Of a stretch of DNA of 64,000 nucleotides, positions 8,770 through 29,389 are shown in pieces (position 1 is the stretch's first letter; each line of letters starts with the position of its first letter). The notes beneath the pieces were generated by a model. It searched no databases, had not been told where the DNA came from, and saw only the letters and a list, made by a program, of their open reading frames with translations. This DNA comes from Deltaproteobacteria bacterium GWB2_55_19 (GTDB lineage Bacteria > Desulfobacterota > GWC2-55-46): positions 801-64,800 of the forward strand of contig MGPQ01000014.1 of assembly GCA_001797465.1 (NCBI GenBank), written 5' to 3'. The translations under genes and the position numbers were made by a program.

Positions 8770-9192
8770 CTACTTCCCCCAGACGATCCCCGCCGCCTTC
8801 TCTATCGACCTGCCGCCGAAATAAAATATTATGACCGTCTGCATGACGTCCTTGTGGACCTCGGAGAGTGGAAAGGCCGGGAACCCAGCGTAAGGCGCCG
8901 CTATGGTCCACGCGAATATCGCGAGCACAAGGAAACTCCACGCCGGACGGTGCGTCACCGTCAGTATCTTCGTCCAGCCGGGTGCTCCGTCGGACTCCTT
9001 TCCGGCAAGCTCCCTCGCGGTCGCCATGTCCGCTGTCGCGGTCTTGTACTCCTCGACGGCGAGCCTCTGCGCCTCCTTCTGGAACTCGGCCTTTTCCACC
9101 TCGCCCAAGGTGGATGGCAGGTACTTATCCGCGAGTTTCCCCACTACCTTGCCGACTGTATTAGTTATCAGATCCCCTATGACCGGCGTCAT
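8770..9192 (-). CDS. Holin, 3-TM type (resembles the GTA-associated holin family)
   Basis: Start chosen at MTPVIGDL, preceded by AAGGAGG. Coiled N-terminal half, HRPAWSFLVLAIFAW and further TM segments, C-terminal FGGRSIEKAAG. Last gene of the lysis cassette. Confidence 0.6.
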   Translation of the reverse strand: MTPVIGDLITNTVGKVVGKLADKYLPSTLGEVEKAEFQKEAQRLAVEEYKTATADMATARELAGKESDGAPGWTKILTVTHRPAWSFLVLAIFAWTIAAPYAGFPAFPLSEVHKDVMQTVIIFYFGGRSIEKAAGIVWGK

Positions 9193-9270
9193 CTCCCCTG
9201 CCTCCTTGGTTTCGTCCGCTAACCGCCCCTGCGCCCCCCGTCCCATGAGACTTATCCAGACTGACGGCTC

Positions 9271-9699
9271 CTATACATACGGCGAGTAACCCCTGCCGTC
9301 ATATACGAGCCTCTGCTGGTTCGGCCCATTTATCCTCGGGAGCGACAAATGTATCCAGTCAGCCCCGTTCTTCGCCTCCCTTATCGCCTGCCCGAAGCAT
9401 ATTGATCCGTCTTTCGCTATCCAGCCGAAGACCTCGTCTATATCCGCGTCAACGGGCACGATGTCAGCGGCCTCGCCTTTCACGTGCTGGCTCGTGCCTG
9501 AGCCGTTGACGCGCGCGTTTACGGCTTCAGACCTAAACGCGCTCGTCACCCTTATCATCCCCCATTTTTTTCTAACCGGCTCAAGGAGATATGTCGCCGT
9601 TAAGAGGAGCTTTTCCGTCTCCGTCTTACCCGGCCTGTTCGGCAGGCCCGTTGCAGTCCTCGTCAGCTCTTCAAGGCTGAAGTTATCGGTTATCAGCAT
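9271..9699 (-). CDS. Peptidase M15 (Peptidase_M15_3-like) endolysin
   Basis: MLITDNFSLEELT..., SAFRS, SQHVKGEAADI (H-x6-D zinc ligands), DWIHLS. Start ATG is preceded by GAGGGGGG. Confidence 0.8.
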   Translation of the reverse strand: MLITDNFSLEELTRTATGLPNRPGKTETEKLLLTATYLLEPVRKKWGMIRVTSAFRSEAVNARVNGSGTSQHVKGEAADIVPVDADIDEVFGWIAKDGSICFGQAIREAKNGADWIHLSLPRINGPNQQRLVYDGRGYSPYV

Positions 9700-9707
9700 T
9701 ACCCCCC

Positions 9708-10031
9708 TCAGTACTTCAGCACGCCGCTTAATATGGTCCCCATTGCACCGAGCCCGAGCGCCGCCATCACATAGATTACCGCCTTGAATACCCACCCCGA
9801 GGCCATTACGAGGTTCGGTAGCGCCTTCTCAACCGATTCTATCCGCTCGCCGTTCTTTCTTATGAGCCTGAATGCGCGCTTGATCGCGTCAGTCACGGCG
9901 TTATGCCGTTCTTCGAGGACAGCGAGCGTCTTTAAAGACACGGCGATGTCTTTCAACGCCTCCTTTATCTCGAAGAGGTCCCCTGAGACCGATTTGAGCC
10001 CCTCTTCCACCCTGATGAGTCTTTCTTCCAT
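9708..10031 (-). CDS. XhlA-like lysis-associated protein (coiled coil plus C-terminal TM)
   Basis: 107 aa. The N-terminal ~70 aa are heptad-like (RVEEGLKSVSGDLFEIKEALKDI...), followed by a single C-terminal TM (WVFKAVIYVMAALGLGAMGTIL). Sits directly upstream of the endolysin. Confidence 0.5.
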   Translation of the reverse strand: MEERLIRVEEGLKSVSGDLFEIKEALKDIAVSLKTLAVLEERHNAVTDAIKRAFRLIRKNGERIESVEKALPNLVMASGWVFKAVIYVMAALGLGAMGTILSGVLKY

Positions 10032-10073
10032 CTGACTCCCCCGTAAAAATTCGCCAAAAAACTCAACTTGGCC

Positions 10074-10195
10074 CAGGTTGCTTTAAAAGCTCCAGATGCG
10101 AGGCGTCGAGAAGAGAGGAACGAGGCGTACTTTTTTGTACACCACAGTTCCGAGCGCCTAAGACAACAAAGCAGATGGAGTTTTAAAACAGCCTG
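10074..10195. repeat. Long imperfect palindromic repeat, copy A (family also at 44484-44582 and 52505-52622)
   Basis: Shares the blocks CAGGYTGC..AAAAGCTCCAGATGCGAGGC..GAGGCGTAC-loop-GTAC(G/A)CC..ACGAGC..GACAA(C)AAAGCAGATGGA..CAGCCTG with copy B. The central stem is GGCGTAC/GTACACC. It starts 1 nt after the stop codon of the upstream ORF. Confidence 0.8.
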
Positions 10196-10726
10196 CTAAG
10201 TCATCCTTCCGACGGCCTTGTCTATGTACGCGTTATAGCTCCCGGTGGTGTGCGAGAGCTGCACCTCGAACGTCTGCCATCCGCTCAAGGCGGAAACGTC
10301 TATGGTGCCGGGGCCGTGCCAGGCGTATACCGTCTCATCCGGCGTCCCCTGCACGGTGGTCCCGTCCGTCGCGCCTGTCTTAAGCCTCATGTCGGCGCGG
10401 CCCGTGAACTCCACCTTTGTCCTCGCGCAGTACGCGAGCGCGGTCAAGTCCGCCGGTATGTAGAGCATGACCGTGTCTATTGTCACGAACGACAGCGAGA
10501 TCGTCATGGCGTCCCTGTCCATGAGGAGTATCTGGCCGCCGGAGATGGACCTGCTGTTCACGCCGTCGTGGCTGTGGTTCGACTCCGCCGCGTAGTCTCC
10601 CCCGAGCCACTCCCTCAGATGGACGTCGTTGTCCCGGAGCGACGTCATAAGGGAGACGTCTATGGGGCTGTCCGCGTCCACCGCCGAATCTGTTATTACC
10701 GTAAATGTCTTGCTCGGATAAGCCAT
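10196..10726 (-). CDS. Hypothetical phage tail-associated protein
   Basis: 176-aa ORF at the end of the tail module. No recognisable motif. Confidence 0.55.
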   Translation of the reverse strand: MAYPSKTFTVITDSAVDADSPIDVSLMTSLRDNDVHLREWLGGDYAAESNHSHDGVNSRSISGGQILLMDRDAMTISLSFVTIDTVMLYIPADLTALAYCARTKVEFTGRADMRLKTGATDGTTVQGTPDETVYAWHGPGTIDVSALSGWQTFEVQLSHTTGSYNAYIDKAVGRMT

Positions 10727-10735
10727 CTCCCCCTC

Positions 10736-12340
10736 CTACCAGATGTGTGACCTTGCCGCGAAACCGTAGGCGCGCGTCTCCTTCGAGGCCGCGCCGTAAT
10801 CCGGGGTATCCGGAGGCGCCACGAACCCATAGTTCCGCATCATCTTCGCCCTCATCGCCTCGATAGCCGTCTTCCCGGCCGTGATATCGGGCCTTACGGA
10901 CGTTATCATCACCCGCTCCCTCTGCCAACTCGAGACCCCCTTGTCCGAGGCCTCGTCGGTTGTTATGTCCAACAGGTCCGTCGGCCTTAAAAAACGCCCG
11001 CTCGTCGTCCCGTTGTTGATGTCCACCTCGAAGGAGACCGTCGACGACGGGTCGCGGTAGAAGTTCAGGAGCTTGTTCGCCACAGACGAAGCGAGGACCG
11101 GGCCGTTCAATGGCTCGACCGTTATATAGTCCGTAGCGTCTGCGGCAGGGAGCGCCCCCGCGTCCACTATGACCCTTAAATACTTAGACCCGTCCGCGTC
11201 GCTTATGTCGTACCTCCCGCTCTGCGCGACCTCTACGGCACTGCCAGCCGTACCTCCCTGCGGGGTCCATTGGAGCGTGTTATCGGCCTTAATGTAGACG
11301 AGGGCGCCGCTCCCCTCCCCGTTCGACTTCGAGGCGTGAAAGACTACCACCCCGGTTATGGTCGAGGCCTGGGAAAACGTATAAGACCTTATCCATCTCG
11401 CCTTCACGGTCTTTGTCGAGGCCTCGTCCCACTGGGACTCGTCCTCTGATGCCGCGTCCAGGGCAATAACGGCGGACTCAAAATTTTCCGTCCCGTCGCT
11501 CCCCGACTCGTCGTAGTCGTAGTAGACGACGACCCTGTTGTAAAAGTTGTCCCTGTACCCGCTCTTCTGCGAGAAGCTCTTCTCCAGTATCTCCTTATCT
11601 GTCCACTCCTCGACCGTTTCGCCCGGGAGCGGCGGCGCGTAGACCTTGAGAGATATCCTCTCGCCGTCGTGTATTATGAACGAGTTCGTCTCGGCCTGTA
11701 GCTCGTTAAGATATTCGTTAGCCGCCTCCGGCTCGGTAATGACGCGGGAGAACTTCCAGCCGTTAAGCCACAGGTCGCGCTCAGTGGCGAACTTTCCGGT
11801 ATCGACGCACTCCGGAGCCACCCCGAGCCTGTTTACGAGGATGTCCGTCATGATGTCAGCCGGGTTCGCTCCGAGATAGCTTATGTACTGGGTGTTCTCC
11901 TCGGTCTCCTCCGGTATTTTAATCGTAGCGTCGATAAGGTCGTCGGATATTGTAATGGTAAGCTCGTCGCCCTTCCTCGACCAGTCCGAGACGATCCCCG
12001 TATACGTCGCCGCATAATCCGCGTAGCAAAATCCCTCCGAGACAAAACCGTCCTTCCTCGTCACCCTGCGGTTTTTGACGTACTCTCCCTTAATAAACTC
12101 CCGGAAGTTCTCCCTGCCCGTGATTACCGCTGTTATCTCCCCCCTCGTCGTGTAGCCCTTCCTGGTGTCGAGCTTGGACTGGAACGAGGATACGGTCTTG
12201 AGGCACGGGACGATATCGAAAAACCCGCCCGTGTGGAAACCGAACTTCCTTACGCCTGAGTCCAGATTGAGCTCAAGGACGACGTTCGGCACGTTCACAT
12301 TCTCCTTTAGCTCCTTAAGGTATCTCTCCGTCAGTCCCAT
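10736..12340 (-). CDS. Phage tail tip / host-specificity-like protein
   Basis: 534 aa from MGLTERYLKEL (ATG 12340, 8 nt after the upstream stop). Size, position and the segment NEYLNELQAETNSFIIHDGERISLKVY resemble Phage-tail_3 type proteins. Confidence 0.55.
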   Translation of the reverse strand: MGLTERYLKELKENVNVPNVVLELNLDSGVRKFGFHTGGFFDIVPCLKTVSSFQSKLDTRKGYTTRGEITAVITGRENFREFIKGEYVKNRRVTRKDGFVSEGFCYADYAATYTGIVSDWSRKGDELTITISDDLIDATIKIPEETEENTQYISYLGANPADIMTDILVNRLGVAPECVDTGKFATERDLWLNGWKFSRVITEPEAANEYLNELQAETNSFIIHDGERISLKVYAPPLPGETVEEWTDKEILEKSFSQKSGYRDNFYNRVVVYYDYDESGSDGTENFESAVIALDAASEDESQWDEASTKTVKARWIRSYTFSQASTITGVVVFHASKSNGEGSGALVYIKADNTLQWTPQGGTAGSAVEVAQSGRYDISDADGSKYLRVIVDAGALPAADATDYITVEPLNGPVLASSVANKLLNFYRDPSSTVSFEVDINNGTTSGRFLRPTDLLDITTDEASDKGVSSWQRERVMITSVRPDITAGKTAIEAMRAKMMRNYGFVAPPDTPDYGAASKETRAYGFAARSHIW

Positions 12341-12348
12341 GGCCCGCC

Positions 12349-14007
12349 CTATGTGTTGTTGGATACCGCGCAATACCAGTTAGTCCCGTCGAATACCGCG
12401 CTCATGGTATCTCCCGAGGACGCCGTAAAGTCGGTCCCGCCGTTGCCCTTGAGGTTCGTCCCAGTAAAGTCAACGGTGGTGTTCGCGTCGTTGAAGAGGA
12501 TTAAGACCTCCTGCCCCGTCACGCCGTCGTCGAGCATGGTAATAGTCGTCGCCCCGGCGTTTGCGGTTTTAAAGAGGCTTCCACTGGCCACACTCGGCGT
12601 CGCGTCAAGGGAGGTGAAGGATACGAAGTTCCCCCTCTTCTGCGAGGACAAACCATAAGTCGTATCAAACTTGGTGAAAAGGTCTATCCTCGCCGGGTTC
12701 GATATGGTAGTGGTGAGAGTGGTGTCCATCTCGTTTCCCTCGACACGCAGGCCCCTCTGGACGGCGTCCTGAATATCAATCCCTATGGTCGTGCCCGGGG
12801 CAGAGGCGGATTTATAAAATTTATTCCTTAAAATCTCCTTGCCGTACGAATACAGGCTTCCCCAAACCTGTATGCCCGTCACGAGGATGTTTCCGAAGAT
12901 GTTGTCCTCTATCGTGGCCCTGTCTATTCCAGCTATGCTCGTGTCGGCATCGTTCTTGCCGAGTGAAAGGGCTATGTCGTTGTTCGAGAACCATGCCCCC
13001 TTTACGCTCGTCAACTGCGCCCGGTTATGGATAATCATGCCTATACCGCCGTTAGCCCCGTCCTGGCAGGCCTCGATATAAGACCCCCACCAGTTGACAT
13101 TCTTCGCGCCGCTCCCCACAAGGACCCCGTGAGTCTTATGGGTCGAAGCCTGACAGCCTATGCAATTGATAGTCGTGATTATCGCGCCTGAGCCATACGT
13201 GTTATGCCCCAGCTCCCATCCCTTGTCGAAGGAGACCGTATTTACATTTATGAAGGTGAGGTTGCCGCCCCCGTTTTGCGTAGTGAGCGTGCGGACGATG
13301 AGCCCTGTGTCTGATACGGTCTTGCCCGCGCCGTAAATCAATACATCCGACCAGGTACAAACATAACCCCCTTCATAAAGGATCCCGCCACCCGAGCCTT
13401 TTTGCCCGACAAGGAGCCTGTTCAGCGTAAACCCGTAATTGGCGATGTCTACATCCAGTACCTGAGTCGTGTTGGTCGCGATTATTGACATATCCTCGAT
13501 GACAAAGTTGGACATCCTTGAGCTTACTCCGGTGCCGTCCAACTTTATCGCGGGCCCCGTAGCGTCGGTAGATTCAAGGACCGTCCGATTAAAAACGGAA
13601 TACAGGAAGTTGTAGCCTCCGACCGCGCCATCGCCGAAAAATTTGATTTTGCCCTCGTAACCCGCCGTCTGCGGCCATCCGGGATTGAGAGTGGCGTCGT
13701 AGTAAAGGTATAGCCTCGTGAACTTGTAATGGCCCTCTGGCGCGTAGACATTGAGGCCGTTCGTGGCCGCGTAGTTTATGGCGTCCTGTATGGCCGTCGT
13801 GTCGTCGGTCGCTCCGTCGCCTGTTGCGCCGAAGGCCCGGACGTCTACGACGGGGCGCTTTGTGATGAGGTCGGTATAGATGTTCGCTGACTTGTGAGTC
13901 CCGTCGTTATTGTGCTCAACGAGCGAGAGCCTGTTTATGGTGTCGATTTTGGTCGCGTGGTTCGAGCCTACGAGTTCTTCCGTGTACTGTATCCTCTGGT
14001 CCGCCAT
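12349..14007 (-). CDS. Tailspike / depolymerase with pectate-lyase-like right-handed beta-helix
   Basis: N-terminal phage anchor, then VDVRAFGATGDGATDDTTAIQDAINYA (the Pectate_lyase_3 signature), followed by Gly/Asn-rich beta-helix-like repeats. Confidence 0.75.
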   Translation of the reverse strand: MADQRIQYTEELVGSNHATKIDTINRLSLVEHNNDGTHKSANIYTDLITKRPVVDVRAFGATGDGATDDTTAIQDAINYAATNGLNVYAPEGHYKFTRLYLYYDATLNPGWPQTAGYEGKIKFFGDGAVGGYNFLYSVFNRTVLESTDATGPAIKLDGTGVSSRMSNFVIEDMSIIATNTTQVLDVDIANYGFTLNRLLVGQKGSGGGILYEGGYVCTWSDVLIYGAGKTVSDTGLIVRTLTTQNGGGNLTFINVNTVSFDKGWELGHNTYGSGAIITTINCIGCQASTHKTHGVLVGSGAKNVNWWGSYIEACQDGANGGIGMIIHNRAQLTSVKGAWFSNNDIALSLGKNDADTSIAGIDRATIEDNIFGNILVTGIQVWGSLYSYGKEILRNKFYKSASAPGTTIGIDIQDAVQRGLRVEGNEMDTTLTTTISNPARIDLFTKFDTTYGLSSQKRGNFVSFTSLDATPSVASGSLFKTANAGATTITMLDDGVTGQEVLILFNDANTTVDFTGTNLKGNGGTDFTASSGDTMSAVFDGTNWYCAVSNNT

Positions 14008-14010: not shown

Positions 14011-14868
14011 CTACTCCTTCCGCCCCTTGAGTTTAATTGAGATGTCCCTGTAGCACCCGCCGCCCTTTAAGGGGTTTTTGAACTTCCCCTCGGGCCTCAT
14101 CAGAAATACCTCGGCAGGCTTTCCGGAGGTCTCCCACCCGACGAAGAAGTTCCTCATGCCGGATATATCCCACCAGCGCCTTACCTTCTCGTACAGGGTC
14201 ACCGTATCAGACCCCTTTGCCGTAATCGCACCGTCGGCCCTGTACGAGCCGTCCGCGAAGTACCCGCTTGGCCTCACGTCCACGTCCTCGAACTTAAGCG
14301 ACATCGACTTTTCCGTATACCTCGTGTGTATCCCGGCGACGTGCCCACCGTAGCTCAAATTCACCTCGGCGACAGCCTCTTCCTCGTTCGGGTCGTAGCT
14401 TGAGCTCGCGTAATCGAGTTCGGTAGCCACCCCCCACGCGCATATCGAAATGCATGGCTCGACCCTGTGCCCGGTGATCTTGAGCCTCCAGTACCTCCTG
14501 GCCCCTGGGTTCGTGAACTCCTTAAGAAAGGCCTTGTCCGACCTCACGCACGTAGCCTGGAACGAGTCCGTGTAATTCACCCCGTCTTCCGAGTGCTGGA
14601 GCGTGACCTCCGCGCTCGCGGTCCCGAGGTTGTGCCCGTAGACGGCAAGGTAGTCAGCGGACGACCGGACAGACCCGAGGCCGGTATCGAGCGTTATAAA
14701 GTGCGGGTCCGTAAGGTCCGCCGCCTTCCACATCGTCGTCTCCATCATGCCGGAGATATTATCCACGCGTGAATCCTCCGAGGCCTCCGTAGAGGCCGTA
14801 AGCGCCGCCCCGCTCTGCCCAAGCAACGTGTCGTAATATATTTTTACCTTCGCCCATACAGCCATCAT
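14011..14868 (-). CDS. Hypothetical phage distal-tail protein
   Basis: 285-aa ORF between the lipoprotein moron and the tailspike. Call rests on position only. Confidence 0.5.
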   Translation of the reverse strand: MMAVWAKVKIYYDTLLGQSGAALTASTEASEDSRVDNISGMMETTMWKAADLTDPHFITLDTGLGSVRSSADYLAVYGHNLGTASAEVTLQHSEDGVNYTDSFQATCVRSDKAFLKEFTNPGARRYWRLKITGHRVEPCISICAWGVATELDYASSSYDPNEEEAVAEVNLSYGGHVAGIHTRYTEKSMSLKFEDVDVRPSGYFADGSYRADGAITAKGSDTVTLYEKVRRWWDISGMRNFFVGWETSGKPAEVFLMRPEGKFKNPLKGGGCYRDISIKLKGRKE

Positions 14869-14884: not shown

Positions 14885-15643
14885 TCATTTCTTCGCCTTT
14901 TTATAAGACTCCCACAAACTCTGACGAATTCTATCCAGAAATTGATATTGATAGTACCTTGACTTGCCTCCTCCGTACCAGGCAACATACACCTCTCCGG
15001 TAATCTTGTCCTTCGTCCGATATCGCTGTTCCGATGTGGCATTGACCTCTACCCTCGCGTAATCTCCGTTCATGGAAAGCCAGATAGCCAGGCGGCTCCT
15101 GAATTCACCTTCGTCCCGGGTATGAGTCGATAAATATCCATCCTCTTTTCTCATCTGGGCTATCGTATATCCGAGGTCGTGAACCGCCCTTATTACAGTA
15201 TCCCACATCTCATCAAAACCCGCCCTTACCTCGAAAGTATCCTCTCCCATGCTCTGCTCCCTCTTTGGTCCGAGCGGGAGCAGATACCCTGATATTTTTT
15301 GGTTGAAAATATAAAGAGCACTTAAATAAGCCGTCTCTCCCTCTTCAAGCCTGACCCTGTAGAAAACATCGCAAGCGTTATTCGGCATGCCCACCCGTAT
15401 ATTGAAATCGAACGGACAATCCCCTTTCTCCGTCCTTATGGGGCACTCCACTTCTTCGATTACAAACTCTTCAGGTTTCTCCATACTAAAAGGTTTTGTA
15501 TTATTTGCAGGTTCCTTGAAGAAAAGGACCTTCTCAGGCACGATAGCCGCATACCGCTCACCTATCATGAAGTTATGCGTAGGTATATATGTGCATGAGC
15601 AGAGAATGAACAAAAAAGCCGCGCTTAATAAAAAACTTTTCAT
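14885..15643 (-). CDS. Lipoprotein (moron inside the tail module)
   Basis: Signal peptide MKSFLLSAAFLFILCSC with a lipobox-like LCSC. GAGGAG SD. Sampled 60-nt lines have 35-48% GC against 55-65% in neighbouring genes. Confidence 0.7.
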   Translation of the reverse strand: MKSFLLSAAFLFILCSCTYIPTHNFMIGERYAAIVPEKVLFFKEPANNTKPFSMEKPEEFVIEEVECPIRTEKGDCPFDFNIRVGMPNNACDVFYRVRLEEGETAYLSALYIFNQKISGYLLPLGPKREQSMGEDTFEVRAGFDEMWDTVIRAVHDLGYTIAQMRKEDGYLSTHTRDEGEFRSRLAIWLSMNGDYARVEVNATSEQRYRTKDKITGEVYVAWYGGGKSRYYQYQFLDRIRQSLWESYKKAKK

Positions 15644-20588: not shown

Positions 20589-20589
20589 C

Positions 20590-21555: not shown

Positions 21556-22636
21556 TGATCCCCCCTGTCATTCCATTATGAAGTAAGAGGCCGCCCCCGC
21601 CGCCGCCTACACCGTCGTCGAACTGGTCAAGGACCAGCCCCATCCACGGACGCTTTGTCGTGGTATCTGTCCAGGCCCAGGCGTCTGTCCGGGTCGTCAG
21701 ATGAAAGTTCTGCCCCCCCTCGAAACAGTCCATGATAGCAACCGCATTGACGGTGAAATCGTAGAATGAGTTCGACGTGGTAGTCGTCGGCTTTACGACA
21801 AGACGATAGAATGTGTCCTTGCTCAAGGCTTGCGCCGTTGCGAACTGAAAATAAAACATCCGTGGCCCGGCGTTTACTTTTTGAAAATCTATGGTGTGAG
21901 TCTGCAATACCGTGGTCCCGTCACTGTCGTACAAGACCACATCCGCCGACCCCGTAACCCCGGTAACGCGATAATTCAGCCAGAAACCGGAAAGCCTCGC
22001 CGGAAACGGGATGGAAAATTTAAGCCCCCTCTCATCCGGCGTTGAGGATGAGTTGAAAGCAGTCTCCGTTACCGCACTCACCGGGTAACAGCCGTAGATA
22101 AAGCCATACGAACCGTCGCTGTATTTTATTGAGAATACAGGCCTTGCCGCGATATTTGCCCAGGATGCCGTGTATTGTTTCGATTCAGGGAACCCGCATA
22201 TGTTCCCACTACTTCCACTACTGCCATCCAATGCGGCTATTCGGAGGTTGCCTGCCACATAGGAATTAAACTCGATAACCACAGCGGCGGCATCATCTGC
22301 CGTTGCAGTGCAGTTTGTACCAAGAGCCACGTTGTACCAGGTATTTGCGGCGGGTGTCGCTTGCGTCCCGGCCACCATACCCCCGTATGCCGTCGTGGTT
22401 GGGTTGTTCGAGGTGTCTACCGTGTATAGCCCGATTTTAAGCGTGTCCGCAATCGTTACTGCGCCGGTTCGAAACCCTATCTCGGTTATCGTGCCGCTTT
22501 TGGGGATTTTAAATATAAATGCCACCTTCTCAGCAGCAGCATCTATGAGATACCCTGTAAGGTCATTCGGAGCCCCAATTACAGCCTCAACGTGGTGCGG
22601 TATAGTCAACCCGCCGATTATGGACTGCATTGTCAT
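21548..22636 (-). CDS. Hypothetical phage structural protein with two beta-sandwich-like repeats and a poly-Gly tail
   Basis: 362 aa. Internal repeat pattern: ..ITEIGFRTGAV..LKIGLYTVD.. and ..LSGFWLNYRVTG..VVLYDSDG... Ends GGGGGGLLLHNGMTGGING. Confidence 0.5.
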   Translation of the reverse strand: MTMQSIIGGLTIPHHVEAVIGAPNDLTGYLIDAAAEKVAFIFKIPKSGTITEIGFRTGAVTIADTLKIGLYTVDTSNNPTTTAYGGMVAGTQATPAANTWYNVALGTNCTATADDAAAVVIEFNSYVAGNLRIAALDGSSGSSGNICGFPESKQYTASWANIAARPVFSIKYSDGSYGFIYGCYPVSAVTETAFNSSSTPDERGLKFSIPFPARLSGFWLNYRVTGVTGSADVVLYDSDGTTVLQTHTIDFQKVNAGPRMFYFQFATAQALSKDTFYRLVVKPTTTTSNSFYDFTVNAVAIMDCFEGGQNFHLTTRTDAWAWTDTTTKRPWMGLVLDQFDDGVGGGGGGLLLHNGMTGGING

Positions 22637-22743
22637 ATTTTAAACTCCCTGCCCTTCTGCCCGGCGTATGGGTCGGGCGTATCGGTCAGCCCTGTGAAGG
22701 TGGAAGAACCCGCCCCGTCCCCGGCTATCGGTTCAAGCAACAT
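22633..22743 (-). CDS. 36-aa ORF carrying an FTGLTDTPDPYAGQKG motif (possible detached N-terminus of the next gene)
   Basis: GAGGAAAGGG SD. Its stop overlaps the next ATG (ATATGA). Below the ORF-track size cut-off. Confidence 0.35.
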   Translation of the reverse strand: MLLEPIAGDGAGSSTFTGLTDTPDPYAGQKGREFKI

Positions 22744-22769: not shown

Positions 22770-22928
22770 CTATTTACGGTTATGCCTGTTCTCCGCGTCC
22801 ATCGCGGTCTTCTTAGCCTTTGCCTCTATCTCCCTCGTCTCCTTGTCCGATGGGAGCCTCCCAGTCCTCTTGAGCCGGTCCTTGTATATCCTCTCCACCA
22901 GCTTTTCTACGGCCCTTCTCTCCCTCAT
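22770..22928 (-). CDS. 52-aa basic ORF (MRERRAVEKLVERIYKDRLKRTG...)
   Basis: Its ATG overlaps the stop of the upstream 128-aa gene as ATGA. It fills an otherwise empty gap. Confidence 0.35.
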   Translation of the reverse strand: MRERRAVEKLVERIYKDRLKRTGRLPSDKETREIEAKAKKTAMDAENRHNRK

Positions 22929-23311
22929 CGCTCGCCTCTCATCATCGTTTTCAATGCTGTGCTCAAATACTCCTCAGGCAGGTCCTCTGGGTCTTTAAGG
23001 AACTCCCCTTGAGGGAGTTTATCCCTTAAATTCGAACACCTTCTAAGCACAGCCTCCATCCGCCTTAAAAACGCCTTGTCAATTTTCTTAATCGGCGCCC
23101 ACCCGTCGCAATAATACCTTTTAGCCGCCTCTTTGATGTTATTGACCCTGACGGTCTGCAAGACCTTTCCGCCGCCCGCCTCCTCGATGAACTGCCTGTT
23201 CCACATCCAAAAATCCTGGAGCGGCTCGCCCTGCCAGGCGATGCCGGCGTACCTGTTGACGGCAAGCGGGATGTACCCGCGTTTAATATACGAACCTATG
23301 CTTATAGCCAT
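22925..23311 (-). CDS. Hypothetical phage protein
   Basis: 128-aa ORF downstream of the capsid gene. Confidence 0.5.
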   Translation of the reverse strand: MAISIGSYIKRGYIPLAVNRYAGIAWQGEPLQDFWMWNRQFIEEAGGGKVLQTVRVNNIKEAAKRYYCDGWAPIKKIDKAFLRRMEAVLRRCSNLRDKLPQGEFLKDPEDLPEEYLSTALKTMMRGER

Positions 23312-23407: not shown

Positions 23408-24271
23408 TTACTCGTGTTTGGTTATTATCTTTACCCCGCCGTTCGCCGCGGTGTTTACGCACCCGTGGCCGTATACGGCGGTTACGATTATCTCGGTCGC
23501 CCTGAGTGAGGCGTCCCTCTGGAACTCGGTCTTTGCGCCTGTTTTCAACACGTACGCGAGCCCCGACTGATTGCCAAGCGGCATCATGACGCCGAGTCTA
23601 TCCGCGTTGGCGTTGACGGACGCACAGTTCGTCGACTGGACGATGTCCACCCCGTAGAGCGTGCCCATCGAGCCTATGTCCCTTGCCGGAGCCGTGGGCC
23701 CGCCCCATACCGCGCCGGTCGTCGCGGCTATGGACGACCTTAAATTGCTCACCTGGTACGGATGGAGCACGGCGACGAACGGCCCCTTGGCGTTCCCCAG
23801 CTCGAGCGAATATATGGCCGAGAGGAAGTTCGCCTCTGTCATGTCCGCGCCCGACGTGCCTACCGAGCCCGTAAGGGTTGCCGCGCTCAACAGGAGGTCC
23901 GAGTCTATCTTGTTCGCGAGCGCCTTTCCAAGCTCGGTCGCGAAGGGCTCAAGGCCGCCGAGCCCCGCTCCGTTCATGAGCATGTCCGTTACCGTAATCA
24001 TGATCCCGGCCTCGTCCGCTACGACTACGGTTGAGGCCGTGTTGACGGCGGTATTCGACATGTCCGTCGCTTCCGTCAGGTCGGAAGCGGACAGGAGCGG
24101 CCACTTCGGGAACTCAACCGAGAGGCTCCCGTCAGCGCTTATGTCCGCGACCCTTACGAGCGGCGGCATCACCGCCTCCGCGTACGCGGCGTCTATTACG
24201 AGCCTTGATACTATTTCCGCGGCTATTAGCTCCCCTGCGGAAGCCGTAGCCGATGTCACTTCATTTGCCAT
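23408..24271 (-). CDS. Major capsid protein (HK97-fold-like, no delta domain)
   Basis: 287 aa with a perfect AGGAGG SD. Follows a scaffold gene. Composition and length are typical of scaffold-dependent HK97-like capsids. Confidence 0.7.
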   Translation of the reverse strand: MANEVTSATASAGELIAAEIVSRLVIDAAYAEAVMPPLVRVADISADGSLSVEFPKWPLLSASDLTEATDMSNTAVNTASTVVVADEAGIMITVTDMLMNGAGLGGLEPFATELGKALANKIDSDLLLSAATLTGSVGTSGADMTEANFLSAIYSLELGNAKGPFVAVLHPYQVSNLRSSIAATTGAVWGGPTAPARDIGSMGTLYGVDIVQSTNCASVNANADRLGVMMPLGNQSGLAYVLKTGAKTEFQRDASLRATEIIVTAVYGHGCVNTAANGGVKIITKHE

Positions 24272-24287: not shown

Positions 24288-24944
24288 TTAAACCGCTGAT
24301 TGGAACTTGCGTCTGCGCGCCTCGAGGAACGGGTTCTTTACGTCCCTGAACCCGTAGCTCTGGCCCGCAGAGCCCTGCACGTTCACCCCGTCTTTCAAGA
24401 GCCTGTCGAGCTCTTCCCTCGGCATGTTCCTCCATGAGAGCGGGTCCGAGAGGTTGTGCCTGCGCTCGCCGTATGAGAACCTCGCGCCCAGGGAGCCAGC
24501 CCCGGCGCCAGCGGCGGGCCTCAGGTGGTGTGGCCTCTCGGAGAGCCAGGCTGAGACGAACTCGTCTACCGACAGCGGCCCTCCCATGCTGTTCACCATG
24601 GCCGCGCCCGAATCGTTGGTCACCGACGCCTCATTGCCTTCGCCGAGCCTTATACGCCTCTTGAGGAGCTCGGCGACCTCCTCGGCGTCAACGACCCCGT
24701 GCCTGGAGATCGACCGCAGGAGCACGGCCGCCTTCCTCTCCTCCCGGAGCCTCTCCACCTCAGTTTTGAGCCTCTCGAACTCCTCCGTTGAGGAACGCTT
24801 CGAGGCCTTCGCGTACGCCTTCCTGTACGCCTCGTCTATGAGTTCCTGGACCTTCGCCTGTTGCTCCGGCTGAAAGCTCACCCTGCCATCGTCTCCCGCG
24901 CTCGAGCCGTCCGTTGAAACCGTTTTAAGTTCGTCAACCTGCAT
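24288..24944 (-). CDS. Scaffolding protein
   Basis: 218 aa, with a highly charged coiled-coil centre (EEFERLKTEVERLREERKAA). Lies between the portal and capsid genes. Confidence 0.65.
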   Translation of the reverse strand: MQVDELKTVSTDGSSAGDDGRVSFQPEQQAKVQELIDEAYRKAYAKASKRSSTEEFERLKTEVERLREERKAAVLLRSISRHGVVDAEEVAELLKRRIRLGEGNEASVTNDSGAAMVNSMGGPLSVDEFVSAWLSERPHHLRPAAGAGAGSLGARFSYGERRHNLSDPLSWRNMPREELDRLLKDGVNVQGSAGQSYGFRDVKNPFLEARRRKFQSAV

Positions 24945-25001: not shown

Positions 25002-25229
25002 TTAAAGATGACGGCAATCCGTCTCGTCTGATAGAAGCGCCTTAATCATCTCCGTATCATTAAGACCCCTTGTCACCTCGCGGCAGATATCGGCCTTCTC
25101 GGTTTTCGTCAGCCTCATCCATTCGCCGGCCCCGATGGCCGCGATGACCGAATTCCTCGCCTCAAACAATACTCGCCGCGTTATCCATTCCGCGGTCTTG
25201 CCGTCTATTGAGCGGACTTCCCCGCTCAT
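25002..25229 (-). CDS. Hypothetical small phage protein
   Basis: 75 aa, with an ATGA overlap to the portal stop. Confidence 0.45.
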   Translation of the reverse strand: MSGEVRSIDGKTAEWITRRVLFEARNSVIAAIGAGEWMRLTKTEKADICREVTRGLNDTEMIKALLSDETDCRHL

Positions 25230-26575
25230 GCCTTCGCTATCTCTTCGCTTATGAGGGACTTCACCCCCTCGTCAAGCTTCGGGAGCACCGCGAACGCTAT
25301 CTTCTTTTGTAGCTCCTTCCTGAACGTCTCAGAGTCCACGCGCGCGGTCTGCGCGCTTATCGCCCTGCCGAGGTCGTTTTCGAGATCGCGCACCGAGAAG
25401 TCGTCCGGGTAGTCTATCGTCCCGTCAAAGGCCCTCCCCTCCCACTTCGCCCAGAGCTCGATGACCCTCGTCTCGGCCTGTTCGAGGTTGTCGGCCTTCT
25501 CGCTCAGGGCCGAGTGGAGCTGTCTCTGTTCGACTTCGAGCGCCGCGCCGGAGCGCGCCTGCGCGGATTCCTCCGTAGCCCTCGCCCCTCCCATCCTCGC
25601 GGTCCTGTATATCTCGGCTATATCGTTCCTCACCCACTCCCTTATCTCGGTCAAGGACGAGTGCGGGGCCTCGAGCCAGTACGGCCTTCCGTTCGGGAGC
25701 TCCGGATCGAACTGCAGTATATTGTGCGGCCCGACCTCCTTGTCCCCGCGGTCGGCCCCTCTCGAATACGGTATCGCGAGCATTGGAAAGGCCGTGTTCT
25801 CGATTATTTCTCTCGCGTCGGAGCAGAGGTAGTAGATGTTCCTGTTGATGTCGGCTATGTCGTTCAGGTCCGATATGCCGATCATCCTTATCCCGGACTG
25901 TTTGTTGTAGAGGTTCACGACCGGCACTTCACCCAGCCCGTGTTCGCCGGCGTCCGCAAGGACGGCCTCGCCGTCGCTCCCCTCCTGCCAGAGCTCCCAA
26001 CCCTGCCTGGTCCATATCCTGCACGCGCCAGGGGCCTCCATTATCTTTATCGTTTCAAGCGCCATCCTGCCCGTCGACGGGTCCCTGCCATACGACCAGT
26101 CGAGGAGGTTCTCCGGTGTGACGAGCGAGATATACGGCCTTACGCCGAAGGCCTCCGCCTCCGCCCTCGTCGTCGCCTTGCCCCTCGGCTTGTCAACGAC
26201 AATCGACACCCTGCCGTAGACGGACGCGAACCGCTGGGCCTCCCTCATGAAGTGCCTGAACGTGTTGCCTTCGAGGTCAGCGTCCTTCAAAAACGCGCGG
26301 AAGAGCGGGTTTGCGCCCAGAGACCCGAACTCACGCCTCGCGTCATTCCTGAAGAGGTGAGAGACGAATGTGTCCACTATCGGGCCGCAATAGTTGTAGA
26401 AGTAGCTCGTTTCCTTCCTCCGCGCGTAATTGGCCTCGCTCTCGAAGGGGTGCTTCAAAAGATAGTTGCCGTCCCTGTACGTCCTCCCCCCGAAGTACGA
26501 GCGTACGTGGAACCTCCACTCGTCGACGAGCGCCTCATAGCTGGGGTGCTTCTTCTCTAACTCCTCTCTCGTCAT
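25226..26575 (-). CDS. Portal protein
   Basis: 449 aa, directly after TerL, GGAG SD. The N-terminal pattern ..YEALVDEWRFHVRSYFGGRTY..ESEANYARRKETSYFYNY.. resembles DUF4055-type portals. Confidence 0.7.
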   Translation of the reverse strand: MTREELEKKHPSYEALVDEWRFHVRSYFGGRTYRDGNYLLKHPFESEANYARRKETSYFYNYCGPIVDTFVSHLFRNDARREFGSLGANPLFRAFLKDADLEGNTFRHFMREAQRFASVYGRVSIVVDKPRGKATTRAEAEAFGVRPYISLVTPENLLDWSYGRDPSTGRMALETIKIMEAPGACRIWTRQGWELWQEGSDGEAVLADAGEHGLGEVPVVNLYNKQSGIRMIGISDLNDIADINRNIYYLCSDAREIIENTAFPMLAIPYSRGADRGDKEVGPHNILQFDPELPNGRPYWLEAPHSSLTEIREWVRNDIAEIYRTARMGGARATEESAQARSGAALEVEQRQLHSALSEKADNLEQAETRVIELWAKWEGRAFDGTIDYPDDFSVRDLENDLGRAISAQTARVDSETFRKELQKKIAFAVLPKLDEGVKSLISEEIAKA

Positions 26576-26586: not shown

Positions 26587-27852
26587 TTATTTGTAAAACC
26601 TCGAGGCCGGGTCGCGCCTCAATATCCTCAGCGGGAACTCATACTCGACGAAGTACCCAAGCGCGTCGGAGGCGTGGGTAAGTTCTTTTTTCGTTTTATC
26701 CATCCCGTTTGAACCGGCCCATTCTATCGTCTCAAGGTCTTTCCTTAAGGCGGCGCACCTCGGGTGATGGCTGAGCCTCGTTTCACCCCCGGCGCTCCCT
26801 AAAAGCGCGTTCACGGCGTTTACCCTGTCCCTTACAGCCGGGTTCGAGCGCTTTAACCTCTGCTCCTTAAACCCCAGCTCGAAGAGGATCGCGTAATCGC
26901 TTTTCCCAGCGGTCGAGCGCGCCGAGCCTGCCGCGTCTCCGTATATGACTACCCCTTCTTTGTGGCGGCCGTACCTCTTTAGCGCCTCTCGCCCCATCTC
27001 CGCGGTATTGGTGTCCTTCAAGACTATCTCGTCGGCGACCCACACCCTTTTCCCGTCTGTCTGAGCTATCTCCCATACGCACGGGTCTACGTTGAAGTCA
27101 CAGCATATCGATACGGGCAGTCCCGGTACTATCGCGACGGACGCGTCCTCGTGGACCTCGGCGCTGTATGCGTAGTAGACCCTGCCTGTGGCCCCCTCGA
27201 AGCTCGCCTCGTACTCCTGTCTGAAGGTCCTGGGGTCGAGCACCCTTCTGGCCGCCTCTACCTCCTCGGACGGGAGTATCTCGGATGAGCGCCAGGTGTA
27301 GGCCCCCCAGTCCTCGTCCGCGCTGAACCTGGCGTAGTCATAGAGCTCCTTATAATGGCCGAGCCCTTCGGGGACGCCTATGAACCAGCACCAGCCGCCC
27401 CTGTCCGAGAGAGCGGGCCTGATGTTTTCCGCCCAGGCCTCAGGTCTCATGTTCGCGTACTCGTCGAGTACGCCGCCGTCCCAGGGAGTCCCCTCTATCC
27501 TCTGCGGCTTGTCGAGCCCTACAACCCATAGCTCGCTCCCGAAGACGGTCACAAGGCAGAGGTCGGTCTCGTATACCTTCCTGATCCACCCCGGTGGAGA
27601 GAGCGCCTTCAAGTCCCTCCAGAATATGCGTTTGGCCTGGTCCCTCGTAGGCGCGGCCGCGAAGTACCTCGGGTCGCTCCAGTTTCTTTTTATCGGGAGC
27701 GACATGACGAGTCTGCGCTTGGCTATCTCCGTCTTTCCGCTCCTCCTGCCCGCCGGCACTACCGCGAACCTCTTATTCTCCGAAAGGAGCCTCGCCTGCT
27801 CCCTGTTGAACCGTAACCCGTGCCATCTCCGCGGCAGTCTCTGTAGCGTCAT
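26587..27852 (-). CDS. Terminase large subunit
   Basis: Walker A VVPAGRRSGKTE, Walker B GGVLDEY, and nuclease-half acidic motifs (CCDFNVDP, HASDALGY). ATG 27852 is preceded by GGAGG. Confidence 0.85.
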   Translation of the reverse strand: MTLQRLPRRWHGLRFNREQARLLSENKRFAVVPAGRRSGKTEIAKRRLVMSLPIKRNWSDPRYFAAAPTRDQAKRIFWRDLKALSPPGWIRKVYETDLCLVTVFGSELWVVGLDKPQRIEGTPWDGGVLDEYANMRPEAWAENIRPALSDRGGWCWFIGVPEGLGHYKELYDYARFSADEDWGAYTWRSSEILPSEEVEAARRVLDPRTFRQEYEASFEGATGRVYYAYSAEVHEDASVAIVPGLPVSICCDFNVDPCVWEIAQTDGKRVWVADEIVLKDTNTAEMGREALKRYGRHKEGVVIYGDAAGSARSTAGKSDYAILFELGFKEQRLKRSNPAVRDRVNAVNALLGSAGGETRLSHHPRCAALRKDLETIEWAGSNGMDKTKKELTHASDALGYFVEYEFPLRILRRDPASRFYK

Positions 27853-28213
27853 CCGTCGCCTCCGGCCCTTCTTCAAGCCCCCAGGCCATGCGCTCGCCCC
27901 TTATCACGCTCGAGAGCACCTCTCCTGCAATCTTGGCCACTTTAAGCTCTTCCAGCCCGAGCTTCGCGTCGTTGTTGCTTAAGCCCCTTACAAGCCTCTT
28001 CTTCACGCCTTTCCAGAGGTCCCTGTGGTCGACGAGTATCTCTCCTTGTACCGTCTCATCCCGGAGCGTTTGAGGGCCTTGCCCCCTCTCCCATCCCTCC
28101 TTCCCGGCCCGCCTTCTTATCGTGCTCTCATGGCATCCGTGGGATCCTGCAAGGCCCCGCACCGCCATGCCTGCCTCATATCCGGTCCTGACCGCGTTCC
28201 AGTCTATCGCCAC
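27773..28213 (-). CDS. Terminase small subunit (HTH N-terminus)
   Basis: 146 aa with a GTG start. N-terminal HTH-like GMAVRGLAGSHGCHESTIRRRAGKEGW. Position is upstream of and overlapping TerL. Confidence 0.6.
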   Translation of the reverse strand: MAIDWNAVRTGYEAGMAVRGLAGSHGCHESTIRRRAGKEGWERGQGPQTLRDETVQGEILVDHRDLWKGVKKRLVRGLSNNDAKLGLEELKVAKIAGEVLSSVIRGERMAWGLEEGPEATDDATETAAEMARVTVQQGAGEAPFGE

Positions 28214-28250: not shown

Positions 28251-28424
28251 TCAGACTTCGTCGAGCCCTTCGTGCTCCTCGCACCTCCTCAAGGGATAGA
28301 GGCTTACGTACACCCTGTTGCACTCCGCACAGCGCTCCGGCTCGCGCAGAAGCACCCGGCTCCCCCTCCCTCCGCCAGTCCACCTTCCGAAATCCGCCGA
28401 CTTGGAACCAAGGCTCATCTCCAT
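28251..28424 (-). CDS. 57-aa ORF with a zinc-ribbon-like CxxC...CxxH pattern
   Basis: GGAGGAG SD 7 nt upstream of the ATG. Sequence MEMSLGSKSADF...ERCAECNRVYVSLYPLRRCEEHEGLDEV. Below the ORF-track cut-off. Confidence 0.35.
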   Translation of the reverse strand: MEMSLGSKSADFGRWTGGGRGSRVLLREPERCAECNRVYVSLYPLRRCEEHEGLDEV

Positions 28425-28538
28425 CGCCGCTCTCCTCCAGGTGTAATTTTACTTAGTACGGTCTTTTTTCTACCCCTGCGGCGGAATCCTCACGATTTTG
28501 AAGGAGGAAATCCGGTTTTTTATTCTGGCGCCGGGGCC

Positions 28539-28575
28539 GGAAATAAAAACAGGCCGGGCATATCGCCCGGCCTGT
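28539..28575 (-). terminator. Rho-independent terminator between the regulator module and the packaging/structural genes
   Basis: Minus strand: ACAGGCCGGGC-5 nt-GCCCGGCCTGT (11-bp perfect stem) followed by TTTTTATTT. Confidence 0.75.
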
Positions 28576-28714
28576 CAATTTCAAAAAAATCAGTTTTTAA
28601 ACACCCAGCCTTTTCTAAATAGTGACCTAAGGGCTTATAAGATCAGATACTCTACCTTAATTGACAATCACTGTTTCCAATCCCGGACACGGCGGCTCCT
28701 CTGACAGGCGACGC

Positions 28715-28888
28715 TCAATTTCCCTGCTGGTCCTCGGTAAGCCAGCCATAACCGTTCTCGGTCGCCCAGAGGGCCTTTCTCTCTATCATGCTCTCGACCC
28801 CTCCTCCGAAGCCGTATACCTTCATCTCCCCGAGCAAGTCGCCCATCGACTGGTACTGCCGCATGGTCTTGTACTCGAGCCAGTCCAT
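28715..28888 (-). CDS. Hypothetical small protein (MDWLEYKTMRQYQSMGDLLGE...)
   Basis: 57 aa from the first ATG after the regulator stop. The SD is weak and the upstream part of the listed ORF overlaps the regulator gene. Confidence 0.3.
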   Translation of the reverse strand: MDWLEYKTMRQYQSMGDLLGEMKVYGFGGGVESMIERKALWATENGYGWLTEDQQGN

Positions 28889-28919
28889 CTTGTTGTCGCC
28901 AGTTTTTTCAGCCTTCACC

Positions 28920-29261
28920 TCAAAGGTCCTTCTCCTCCTCCTGTGCCCTTGAAGACGCGACCTTCTCCTCTGCCCTGTAGAGTATCTCATATGCCCTCCC
29001 GAGTGAAATTCTGTGGCTCTCAGCTATCACCTTCATGTGGGTGTTCCAGTAATGGTATTCCGTAAAGACGGACCTCTCCCTGGGGCTAAGGTCGACAAGC
29101 GGCCACAAAAGGTGCCTTACCTCCTCGCCGCTCCCCTTGAGAGCGCCGTAGAACTGGTCCGGGTCTATCCTTATCTTTTCCACTTTTTTAAGCCCCCTTG
29201 AAAAAACAGAAAACCCTAACGCCCGCGTGGGCGCTTGCGGTCCAGCTTTAGACCGGGTCAT
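28920..29261 (-). CDS. Small sigma-70 region-4-like / HTH transcription regulator (candidate late-gene activator)
   Basis: LSPRERSVFTEYHYWNTHMKVIAESHRISLGRAYEILYRAEEKV matches the sigma70_r4 pattern. An alternative GTG start at 29183 is preceded by AGGGGG. Confidence 0.6.
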   Translation of the reverse strand: MTRSKAGPQAPTRALGFSVFSRGLKKVEKIRIDPDQFYGALKGSGEEVRHLLWPLVDLSPRERSVFTEYHYWNTHMKVIAESHRISLGRAYEILYRAEEKVASSRAQEEEKDL

Positions 29262-29360
29262 GTACTTTATCAGAGCAGGGATACTTGGAGGGCTGCTTTG
29301 TGAATACAGCGGCTTAGATTTTGATAAAAACGATTTATAATTATATAAAATTTACATAAT

Positions 29361-29389
29361 ATTATACATCATTGTTTTATATCTGTCAA
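29361..29389 (-). promoter_or_regulatory. Perfect consensus sigma70 promoter driving the phage-cluster regulator
   Basis: Minus strand reads TTGACA-gatataaaacaatgatg(17)-TATAAT in a ~25% GC spacer about 100 nt upstream of the regulator ORF. Confidence 0.7.

Follow-up and report, generated by a model that had tools for sequence, protein, structure and literature searches.

Are the phage head, tail and lysis genes lodged between core genes of an uncultured bacterium still part of a phage, or do they belong to the host? The question is raised by positions 8770–29389 of the window, the whole 64,000-nucleotide stretch of contig MGPQ01000014.1 (Deltaproteobacteria bacterium GWB2_55_19) that we analysed; coordinates without a prefix refer to this window. 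The evidence strongly supports domestication and vertical inheritance of the cluster. In our judgement it is probably a domesticated, vertically inherited head-tail-lysis cluster of siphovirus type, that is, a viriform resembling gene transfer agents (GTAs) in the uncultured Desulfobacterota lineage GWC2-55-46. GTA function itself, random packaging of host DNA and its transfer, is plausible. It is from the sequence that we infer particle production, host-DNA packaging, transfer to recipients and the regulatory logic described below.

GTAs have been genetically defined in only a few lineages. New ones are hard to spot because detection leans on similarity to those already known, as outlined in a 2024 review (PMC11841831). 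We found no description of the present cluster in the literature on GTAs in Desulfobacterota, Thermodesulfobacteriota or GWC2-55-46. As a class GTAs are already known; what would be new is the cluster as an independent GTA-like lineage in a new phylum. Its sequence is unrelated to that of the alphaproteobacterial RcGTA, yet across at least 53 genomes at species level it carries the evolutionary signature of RcGTA-like elements (a constant place in the chromosome, divergence like that of the host and strong purifying selection), so it would represent an independent domestication in a new phylum. The uncultured host lineage is widespread in groundwater and sediment.

Content and borders of the cluster

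Between 8770 and 29389 every credible open reading frame (ORF) lies on the minus strand in close packing. The ORF list of the window and independent gene calls agree on this point, as they do with the sequence-only reading of the stretch, which had seen tightly packed co-directional ORFs and no credible one on the plus strand. An identical contig sequence is also present among Rifle groundwater metagenome contigs, and the independent gene calls there match. That reading's count of at least six 4-nt ATGA overlaps was too high: there are four, or five if a 36-aa ORF is included, plus one overlap of 8 nt.

Gene identities were assigned by hidden Markov model (HMM) searches of all ORFs of the cluster against PHROG, Pfam and NCBIfam, the last of which returned no informative family. 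According to the PHROG and Pfam matches, the order runs from a sigma-70 region-4-like regulator through two small ORFs, the small and large terminases (TerS and TerL), portal, scaffold and major capsid protein (MCP) to unannotated ORFs, tail tube, two chaperone-sized ORFs, a 288-aa ORF and an AT-rich lipoprotein gene, and ends with a discoidin-like distal tail protein, a tailspike, a tail fibre or tip protein of 545 aa, the M15 peptidase and the holin. The late-operon order first proposed from the letters alone is thereby borne out from regulator to holin, the match of the regulator being weak. No ORF of the cluster matched an integrase, excisionase, repressor, replication, recombination or methylase family in PHROG or Pfam, again as first proposed. 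The locus thus shows two features of GTAs: it is a phage-like head-tail cluster resident in a host chromosome, and within the window it is devoid of replication, integration and self-propagation functions.

Host core genes abut both ends, with phoH, lpxC and DUF2905 on one side and ychF, the genes for H+-pyrophosphatase (PPase) and ribosomal protein L25, pth and prs on the other. The flanking signals expected from the first inspection were found, namely a promoter on the DUF2905 side at 8673–8645 (11/12 match) and a terminator at 29478–29447. The only tRNAs in the window, at 151–225 and 35550–35624, are far from the cluster edges, in keeping with the claim that neither edge carries one. A search for att-like repeats at the edges gave a longest common word of 9 nt, which is within chance range, and an Rfam scan of 8000–30000 returned only chance, sub-threshold matches. 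GC content at third codon positions (GC3) is 0.70–0.84 in core cluster genes and 0.74–0.84 in the flanks, agreeing with the earlier impression of host-like composition; besides the AT-rich lipoprotein gene noted then (0.51), g362 (0.60) is also an outlier. The core cluster measures about 14.5–16.6 kb in relatives, and the window copy (20.6 kb) is larger through accessory modules.

Inheritance and selection in relatives

We compared the window with related loci and contigs, labelled here by L-numbers (e.g. L112, L073). A scan of one genome per GTDB species gave 54 cluster loci in 53 metagenome-assembled genomes (MAGs), and a metagenome scan with a tail protein added 38 loci. The portal protein has 490 homologues; the best 120 of these 490 are 58–96% identical to it, and their source names are nearly all Deltaproteobacteria or Thermodesulfobacteriota MAGs.

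Gene order in the relatives, read by tblastn of window proteins, is shared: prs-L25-pth-PPase-ychF-regulator-TerS-TerL-portal-scaffold-MCP-...-tube-G/GT, where G and GT denote the tail assembly chaperones. At 26 of the 36 assessable loci ychF lies directly upstream of the cluster, and at 12 of 13 lpxC is found 1.7–4.5 kb beyond the tail-fibre gene, the exception (L073) being a phage-like relative. Both flanks are on one contig in GWA2_54_12 (L017, L069), with a ychF-to-DUF2905 distance of 16.6 kb. Ten loci have no ychF upstream; the genes examined there are other host genes (GGDEF/EAL plus DUF3108, cobalamin genes, MFS transporters). No integrase was detected upstream of the cluster in any locus examined, and neither an early region nor att repeats turned up, whether within the window or in the upstream parts of the relatives examined. 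Six look-ups were anchored on lpxC homologues picked regardless of phage genes. In three of them the cluster adjoins DUF2905-lpxC. One of the three is a 2.59-Mb contig from GCA_001595385.3, and a preprint places this genome in GTDB class GWC2-55-46 of Desulfobacterota.

The cluster also diverges at the pace of its hosts. Across 14 genomes, protein distances for host genes (ychF, PPase and prs) and cluster genes (portal, MCP and TerL) correlate at r=0.93 with a slope of 0.96, and none of 2000 Mantel permutations reaches that value of r. Measured against a relative at 88%, synonymous divergence (dS) is 0.41–0.70 for the cluster and 0.43–0.65 for the host, and the dN/dS ratio (omega) of the main structural genes is 0.06–0.15: MCP 0.06, the putative virion protein g295 0.07, the chaperone g124 0.07, portal 0.11, TerL 0.11, tube 0.11 and scaffold 0.14. 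Over a divergence of host genes that reaches 29% (p-distance), the structural genes of the cluster have almost always stayed intact: MCP in 60/60 relatives, portal in 77/79, tube in 45/46 and g124 in 52/52. The A_AAA_AAC slippery heptamer of the chaperone genes and its -1 frame relation are kept in 49 of 52 relatives. In TerL, Walker A residues G43, G47 and K48 and Walker B residues D138 and E139 (numbered from the extended start at 27876) are invariant in all 71 relatives.

Synteny, host-paced divergence, low omega and the conserved slip site and catalytic residues together argue for a resident, selected host locus as opposed to a mobile prophage or a decaying remnant. The sequence-only reading had left the choice between a prophage without its early half and a host-retained particle producer, and had proposed to compare the locus for synteny, intactness and dN/dS below 1. 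With ychF at 26/36 loci, lpxC at 12/13, omega of 0.06–0.15 and MCP intact in 60/60, the comparison, together with the equal dS, comes down on the side of the host-retained producer. Co-evolution with the host by vertical inheritance under purifying selection, a further GTA feature, is therefore part of the picture.

Individual copies depart from the rule in different ways. In L113 (IMG/VR, 6.6 kb) the portal gene is frameshifted and the stretch from the scaffold gene to g130 is deleted; in L058 the portal gene is broken and g295 is interrupted by a stop codon; g142 is split in L035, as are the scaffold gene and g130 in L071.

Many of the host MAGs and contigs derive from 0.1-µm groundwater filter fractions (NC_groundwater ..._B-0.1um; Hain-H41-01um; record titles of L014–L059 and L061–L088). 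Given this origin, size-fraction datasets fit for particle-DNA mapping may exist, and the cluster offers a concrete target for mapping particle-DNA reads in existing groundwater datasets of this kind.

Particle genes and their predicted use

The packaging and head genes are as follows.

27773–28213, minus strand: small terminase TerS with an N-terminal helix-turn-helix (HTH)-like segment (phrog_1206, E=1e-10, residues 2–43 only)
26587–27759, ORF extendable to 27876, minus strand: large terminase TerL (phrog_2, E=1e-36; Terminase_6C)
25226–26575, minus strand: portal protein of DUF4055 type (phrog_145, E=7e-79)
25002–25229, minus strand: g75, a poorly conserved small protein gene with an ATGA overlap with the portal gene (30–51% identity where found)
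24288–24944, minus strand: head scaffolding protein (phrog_206, E=1e-9)
23408–24271, minus strand: HK97-like MCP (phrog_544/267; Phage_capsid_4, weak; PDB 9m66_A, E=1e-7)
22770–23311, minus strand: g128 and g52, of head-completion or connector size (position conserved in 48 loci; no HMM match)

The evidence leans towards a TerS with an N-terminal DNA-binding domain. Residues 2–43 align to the N-terminus of the phage TerS profile phrog_1206, and the motif IDW..L..EYE.G....L...Y.C...TI.RRAKKEGW is conserved in relatives. The N-terminal peptides matched Pfam HTH families at sub-threshold scores only, and the single-sequence AlphaFold2 (AF2) model (pLDDT 40) is unusable. MCP identity is 69–93% in the syntenic genome loci. 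Since 9m66_A is its sole PDB match, no T-number can be deduced, and PDB sequence searches with the tail tube and TerS gave no match.

The neck, tail and lysis genes follow.

19031–19918, minus strand: g295, virion-type neck or tail protein with two immunoglobulin-like beta-sandwiches and a helical C-terminus (AF2 model, conservation)
18606–19034, minus strand: g142, of tail-terminator size (position upstream of the tube gene conserved; 33–50% identity; no HMM match)
17502–18590, minus strand: tail tube protein (Phage_tube_2, 49.3 bits, above cut-off; phrog_290)
16633–17420, minus strand: g124 (G) and its -1 frame extension g130 (GT), the tail assembly chaperones (A_AAA_AAC slip site, 17049–17055)
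15786–16652, minus strand: short protein of tape-measure size, 288 aa (position after G/GT and size; no HMM match)
14885–15643, minus strand: AT-rich lipoprotein gene, an accessory 'moron' (GC 0.456, GC3 0.51; signal peptide and Cys)
14011–14868, minus strand: g285, distal-tail protein, part of which resembles discoidin (F5/8 type C; weak Pfam match, 22.4 bits)
12349–14007, minus strand: tailspike or depolymerase with a pectate-lyase fold and Phage_depo_C (HMM; lineage-variable)
10196–12373, minus strand: tail tip or fibre protein (545 aa) and g176 (phrog_11439, E=3e-14; 48–64% identity in relatives)
8770–10031, minus strand: lysis cassette of three genes, itemised in the next three lines
9708–10031, minus strand: 107-aa membrane-anchored protein (no XhlA HMM match)
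9271–9699, minus strand: M15 peptidase (Peptidase_M15_3, 52.8 bits; phrog_894)
8770–9246, minus strand: holin (phrog_3427, E=8e-6; GTA_holin_3TM, 19.3 bits, below the 24.8 cut-off)

The slip heptamer, which the sequence-only reading had recognised, closes g124, and g130 is read in the -1 frame relative to it. For the tape measure, the proposed short protein stands by position and size, and HMM support for it is lacking. The protein at this position has about 285–320 aa in syntenic relatives, as against 643–657 aa with tape-measure HMM matches in L073 and L087. The tube protein, the G/GT chaperones and the tape-measure-sized protein point to a non-contractile tail. Homologues of g295 number 264, and the 120 listed all have 290–304 aa, nearly all of them 294–295; its AF2 model (pLDDT 84.6) best matches an uncharacterised marine virus protein (TM-score 0.62), and PDB matches are weak and ambiguous (TM-score ≤0.28). 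The distal-tail protein g285 is conserved at 42–51% identity in 40 of 42 loci; between it and the tail-fibre gene the tailspike is missing in L049, L071, L074 and L078. Homologues of the lipoprotein (27–28% identity) occupy the same tail-region position in several relatives (L122:2535–3248, L071:8775–9116, L078:1511–1855 (L078/79) and L100:13011–13592), which makes it a recurrent accessory gene, not a one-off insertion. In the lysis cassette the holin is kept at 41–75%, and the enzyme is of M15_3 type in the window and of M15_4 or DUF5675 type in relatives. A holin had been proposed correctly; its assignment to the three-transmembrane GTA family falls below the Pfam cut-off, and the XhlA-like label for the 107-aa protein found no HMM support.

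Under the GTA-like interpretation, a single late operon would supply terminase, portal, scaffold, capsid, neck, tube, G/GT (through a -1 frameshift), the short tape measure and tail-tip or receptor-binding proteins. TerS and TerL would then package DNA by the headful, presumably chromosomal DNA because no excised or replicated element genome exists. Holin and peptidase would lyse the producer cell, and the variable fibre and tailspike modules would determine which cells the particles bind. In sum, the cluster would make DNA-filled tailed particles without excision, replication or propagation of its own.

RcGTA (Alphaproteobacteria, Rhodogtaviriformidae) offers a close parallel in kind: a chromosomal head-tail cluster of about 15–20 kb without integrase or replication genes, co-evolving with its host under purifying selection, with a sigma-region-4-like activator and a tail that is short, its tape measure being small. 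None of the RcGTA-associated Pfam and NCBIfam families was matched, the sub-threshold holin score being the sole link. The window differs from RcGTA in its DUF4055 portal, in having a scaffold in place of a prohead protease, in carrying lysis genes and regulator inside the cluster, in a TerS that seems to keep its N-terminal DNA-binding-like segment, and in host phylum. The nearest phylum with an experimentally shown GTA is that of Desulfovibrio desulfuricans, whose functional agent Dd1 (Rapp and Wall 1987, cited in PMC9662315 and PMC11841831), compared here by its published description only, has a sulfate-reducing 'deltaproteobacterium' as host; the putative Dd1 TerS is described in the review (PMC11841831) as being without a DNA-binding domain.

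Several observations weigh against the GTA-like interpretation. In the known GTAs described in that review, TerS lacks a DNA-binding domain at its N-terminus, whereas the TerS of the window appears to keep a conserved segment of this type. The apparent segment is at the same time a natural test of the idea that loss of the domain makes GTA packaging random. According to the same source, known GTAs package 4–14 kb, less than the size of their own gene set. Here the genes give no sign of capsid downsizing, and the nearest cultured phages by portal and MCP have genomes of 30–32 kb, so the head might hold the whole 16–21 kb cluster; these genome sizes are the one hint bearing on the comparison of capsid capacity with cluster length that the sequence-only reading had proposed. 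The cluster is not at the lpxC site in three of the six look-ups (L124, L125, L126), and OFTM14 (L125) carries it elsewhere, beside cobalamin genes. A few copies are decayed (L058, L113, L035, L071), with assembly error possible. Thus, of the findings named beforehand as refuting, an integrase, an early region or att repeats did not turn up in the relatives examined, but a few relatives do lack the cluster at the site or carry it decayed. Finally, the regulator, tape-measure and XhlA-like assignments are weak.

The rival that survives best accepts domestication, with the same evidence behind it, and assigns the particles another purpose: they may be killers or defective, in the manner of PBSX, or serve a programmed lysis by which DNA or public goods are set free, any packaged DNA being incidental. 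PBSX of Bacillus subtilis is a non-propagating chromosomal particle locus with a sigma-like late activator (pcf), an xhlA-xhlB-xlyA lysis cassette, a contractile tail and its own xre repressor, in a host of the Firmicutes. The window resembles it in having a sigma-like late activator at the cluster head and a terminal cassette of membrane protein, holin and endolysin inside the cluster, and its receptor-binding modules are hypervariable, as strain-specific targeting would lead one to expect. It differs in its non-contractile tail, in the lack of a repressor in the window and in the missing XhlA match. No sheath or other contractile-tail genes were found, and terminase, portal and capsid genes are selected as strongly as tail genes, which is hard to explain if DNA packaging is irrelevant. 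We regard such a purpose as unlikely. The cluster does not fit the narrower class of PBSX-like defective phages, defined by a contractile sheathed tail and an xre-type repressor, as there is no sheath match and no repressor in the window. A tailocin, which would have tail genes without capsid and packaging genes, was rejected, as the cluster includes terminase, portal, scaffold and capsid genes, all of them selected.

Slightly less probable still is an element of pac type, with packaging that begins in situ at terS or close to it. It might be a fixed engine of lateral transduction that favours the chromosome next to it, or it might depend on a helper and be mobilised by related phages of the same hosts. 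The conserved HTH-like segment of TerS, the stable anchoring to the same neighbours and the occurrence of related genuine phages in the same environments would fit. Yet no pac site was identified, excision and replication functions are absent, and the HTH of TerS is sub-threshold in Pfam, with an AF2 model at pLDDT 40. In its most specific form, to which we give the same low credence, the cluster would be, in place of a randomly packaging GTA, a permanently anchored pac-specific machine in which the TerS HTH starts headful packaging inside the cluster and runs unidirectionally into the chromosome. The direction would be from DUF2905-lpxC-phoH towards tuf and the ribosomal-protein region, so such a machine could preferentially mobilise one chromosomal arm, and the swappable fibre module between head and neck genes could set recipient specificity. 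A capsid-forming phage-inducible chromosomal island or other satellite was rejected, the cluster having a full tail module of its own and neither integrase nor replication genes.

It is very improbable that the cluster is an inert prophage remnant, left without its early half and persisting by chance. All early genes are indeed missing and L058, L113, L035 and L071 carry frameshifts or deletions, but structural genes stay almost always intact over up to 29% host divergence, omega is low, and neither the slip site nor the catalytic residues have been lost; selection and synteny effectively refute this idea.

The least probable explanation, an active temperate phage with a preferred site beside ychF and early genes elsewhere or unrecognised, can cite the trimmed copies that IMG/VR lists as proviruses (L098–L103) and an HTH-S24 repressor gene upstream in one sub-lineage (L043, L025), but host flanks abut both ends, divergence tracks the host (slope 0.96, equal dS), and none of the loci examined has an integrase, att repeats or replication genes. 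An intact or active prophage was rejected likewise, as no integrase, att site, repressor switch or replication module occurs in the window or in the relatives' regions examined, bar that HTH-S24 gene.

Genuine phages related to the cluster do exist, and none was seen in the ychF...lpxC context. The closest cultured ones are Pelagibacter phages HTVC111P, 026P, 112P and 202P (portal 35–36%, capsid 32–35%, genomes of 30–32 kb). The 30-kb IMG/VR contig L112 is closer in TerL (59%), portal (49%) and MCP (62%), but upstream of these it encodes Erf, an initiator of replication, a resolvase for Holliday junctions and another TerS. L073 and L087 share neck and tail genes at 44–64%, whereas their tape measures (643–657 aa) are twice as long as those of the syntenic clusters; in L073 the capsid protein is of another type too (phrog_212), and there is an amidase. 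MAG JACRCM01, to which both L020 and L056 belong, has a further portal/TerL locus on a contig of 5.3 kb; this second locus is more divergent (55% and 45% identity) and may be a genuine phage of the same host.

Control elements, accessory module and repeats

The head of the cluster carries a separate regulator mini-operon, followed by elements that precede the structural operon.

29361–29389, minus strand: consensus sigma-70 promoter TTGACA-17-TATAAT of the regulator mini-operon (12/12 match)
28920–29183, ORF readable up to 29261, minus strand: sig87, sigma-70 region-4-like HTH protein, candidate late activator (HMM and 87-aa gene call)
28715–28918, minus strand: g67, small conserved protein co-transcribed with sig87 (gene call; 42–59% identity in relatives; no HMM match)
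28548–28576, minus strand: strong intrinsic terminator dividing the regulator mini-operon from the structural operon (13-bp stem and T-run)
28452–28528 (parts 28515–28528 and 28452–28476), minus strand: conserved cis element AGAATAA ... GGGTAGAAAAAAnACnnnAnnAG upstream of g57 and TerS (alignment)
28251–28424, minus strand: g57, CxxC...CxxH zinc-ribbon-like small protein that opens the structural operon (no HMM match)

The matches of sig87 are weak (phrog_1190, E=9e-4; Sigma70_r4, 17.3 bits against a cut-off of 24.1; TIGR02937, 21.4 bits), and its HTH residues are near-invariant among 43 relatives. Its length is probably 87 aa (28920–29183) within an ORF range of 87–113 aa. A near-consensus promoter occupies the same place in about 30 of 42 relatives. 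In several of them the -35 hexamer is overlapped by a palindrome, suggestive of a site for a repressor. L032, L033 and L039 have a perfect palindrome centred on the hexamer, ATGTTCTTG-A-CAAGAACAT, about 300 nt upstream of the regulator gene, and compensated variants GTGCTTGACAAGCAC and GGGTTCTTGACAAGAACCC occur; the observation extends to L013 and L019. The palindrome, a candidate operator, is not evident in the window's own promoter. One sub-lineage (L043:4082–4738, minus strand, and L025:3–275) has a divergent CI/LexA-like gene (HTH_3 plus Peptidase_S24) upstream of the regulator gene, which is absent from the window and the other loci.

A terminator-like hairpin is found at the same position in 45 of 47 relatives with differing stem sequences. 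Downstream of it, the motif AGAATAA...GGGTAGAAAAAAAACACCATAG is conserved more strongly than the coding sequence, about 110–290 nt upstream of g57 in relatives; GGGTAGAAAAAAAACACCATAG is the consensus over 21 aligned relatives, and AGAATAA is an upstream half-copy of the motif, which matches no promoter class that we can name. The element at 28452–28528 is a candidate late promoter or activator site. All 58 of 58 relatives keep residues C32, C35, C48 and H51 of g57. L022 has a DEAD-box helicase gene (6038–7723) inserted between the mini-operon and g57/TerS.

This layout leads us to infer a switch by which the sigma-region-4-like protein would bring about late activation or anti-termination. 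The near-consensus promoter, presumably held off by a host repressor, would drive sig87 and g67; the conserved terminator would separate them from the structural operon; and sig87 would activate, or read through to, the GGGTAGAA element upstream of g57-TerS. The Caulobacter agent CcGTA, as described for GafYZ activation and anti-termination (PMC11150451), similarly has a small dedicated activator at the cluster head and a terminator before a long structural operon. The likeness is one of layout, with no homology shown, and for the window both read-through and a separate late promoter are possible. Regulator, terminator, late-operon motif, structural genes and lysis genes form a compact, self-contained architecture that could be rebuilt for heterologous testing.

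Two further features are accessory.

20322–22743, minus strand: variable module comprising the 36-aa ORF, g362, g321 and g88, at a hot spot between head and neck genes (no HMM matches)
10032–10195, no strand assigned: intergenic palindromic repeat of 164 nt resembling repetitive extragenic palindromes or miniature inverted-repeat transposable elements, with g176 on one side and the lysis genes on the other (folding energy -52 to -55 kcal/mol)

Across 48 loci (e.g. L007:13050–19098, L015:12986–13619) the gap from MCP to g295 varies from 0.5 to 6 kb, and half of the loci have no insert. Inserts reach 5.5 kb and show no homology to one another, and the proteins that they encode have up to 1075 aa; g88 of the window corresponds to the C-terminal domain of larger proteins in other loci. 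Between the window and a 98%-identical relative, dS is 0.6 for g362 and g321 and about 0.1 for their neighbours, which indicates recombinational replacement of the module, recent in the lineage of the window. The neighbouring g148 (19915–20361) overlaps g88, has an omega of 0.5–0.74 and is conserved in close relatives only; with such values it is either fast-evolving or not a gene, and we consider it doubtful.

The intergenic repeat had been recognised beforehand as a host palindrome inside the cluster, and the comparison agrees. It is a dispersed, imperfect palindrome of about 125–160 nt with further copies in the window at 44500–44558 and about 52490–52610, and in relatives at unrelated positions of their loci (L075:20430–20565, L124:17470–17529, L007:4–72). 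These copies elsewhere mark it as a host repeat that colonised the cluster. Repetition of another kind is seen at 38788–41427, where two direct repeats (70–73%, spacing 1596 nt) lie inside adjacent large ORFs of what the sequence-only reading took for the nuo region; they look like paralogous neighbouring genes.

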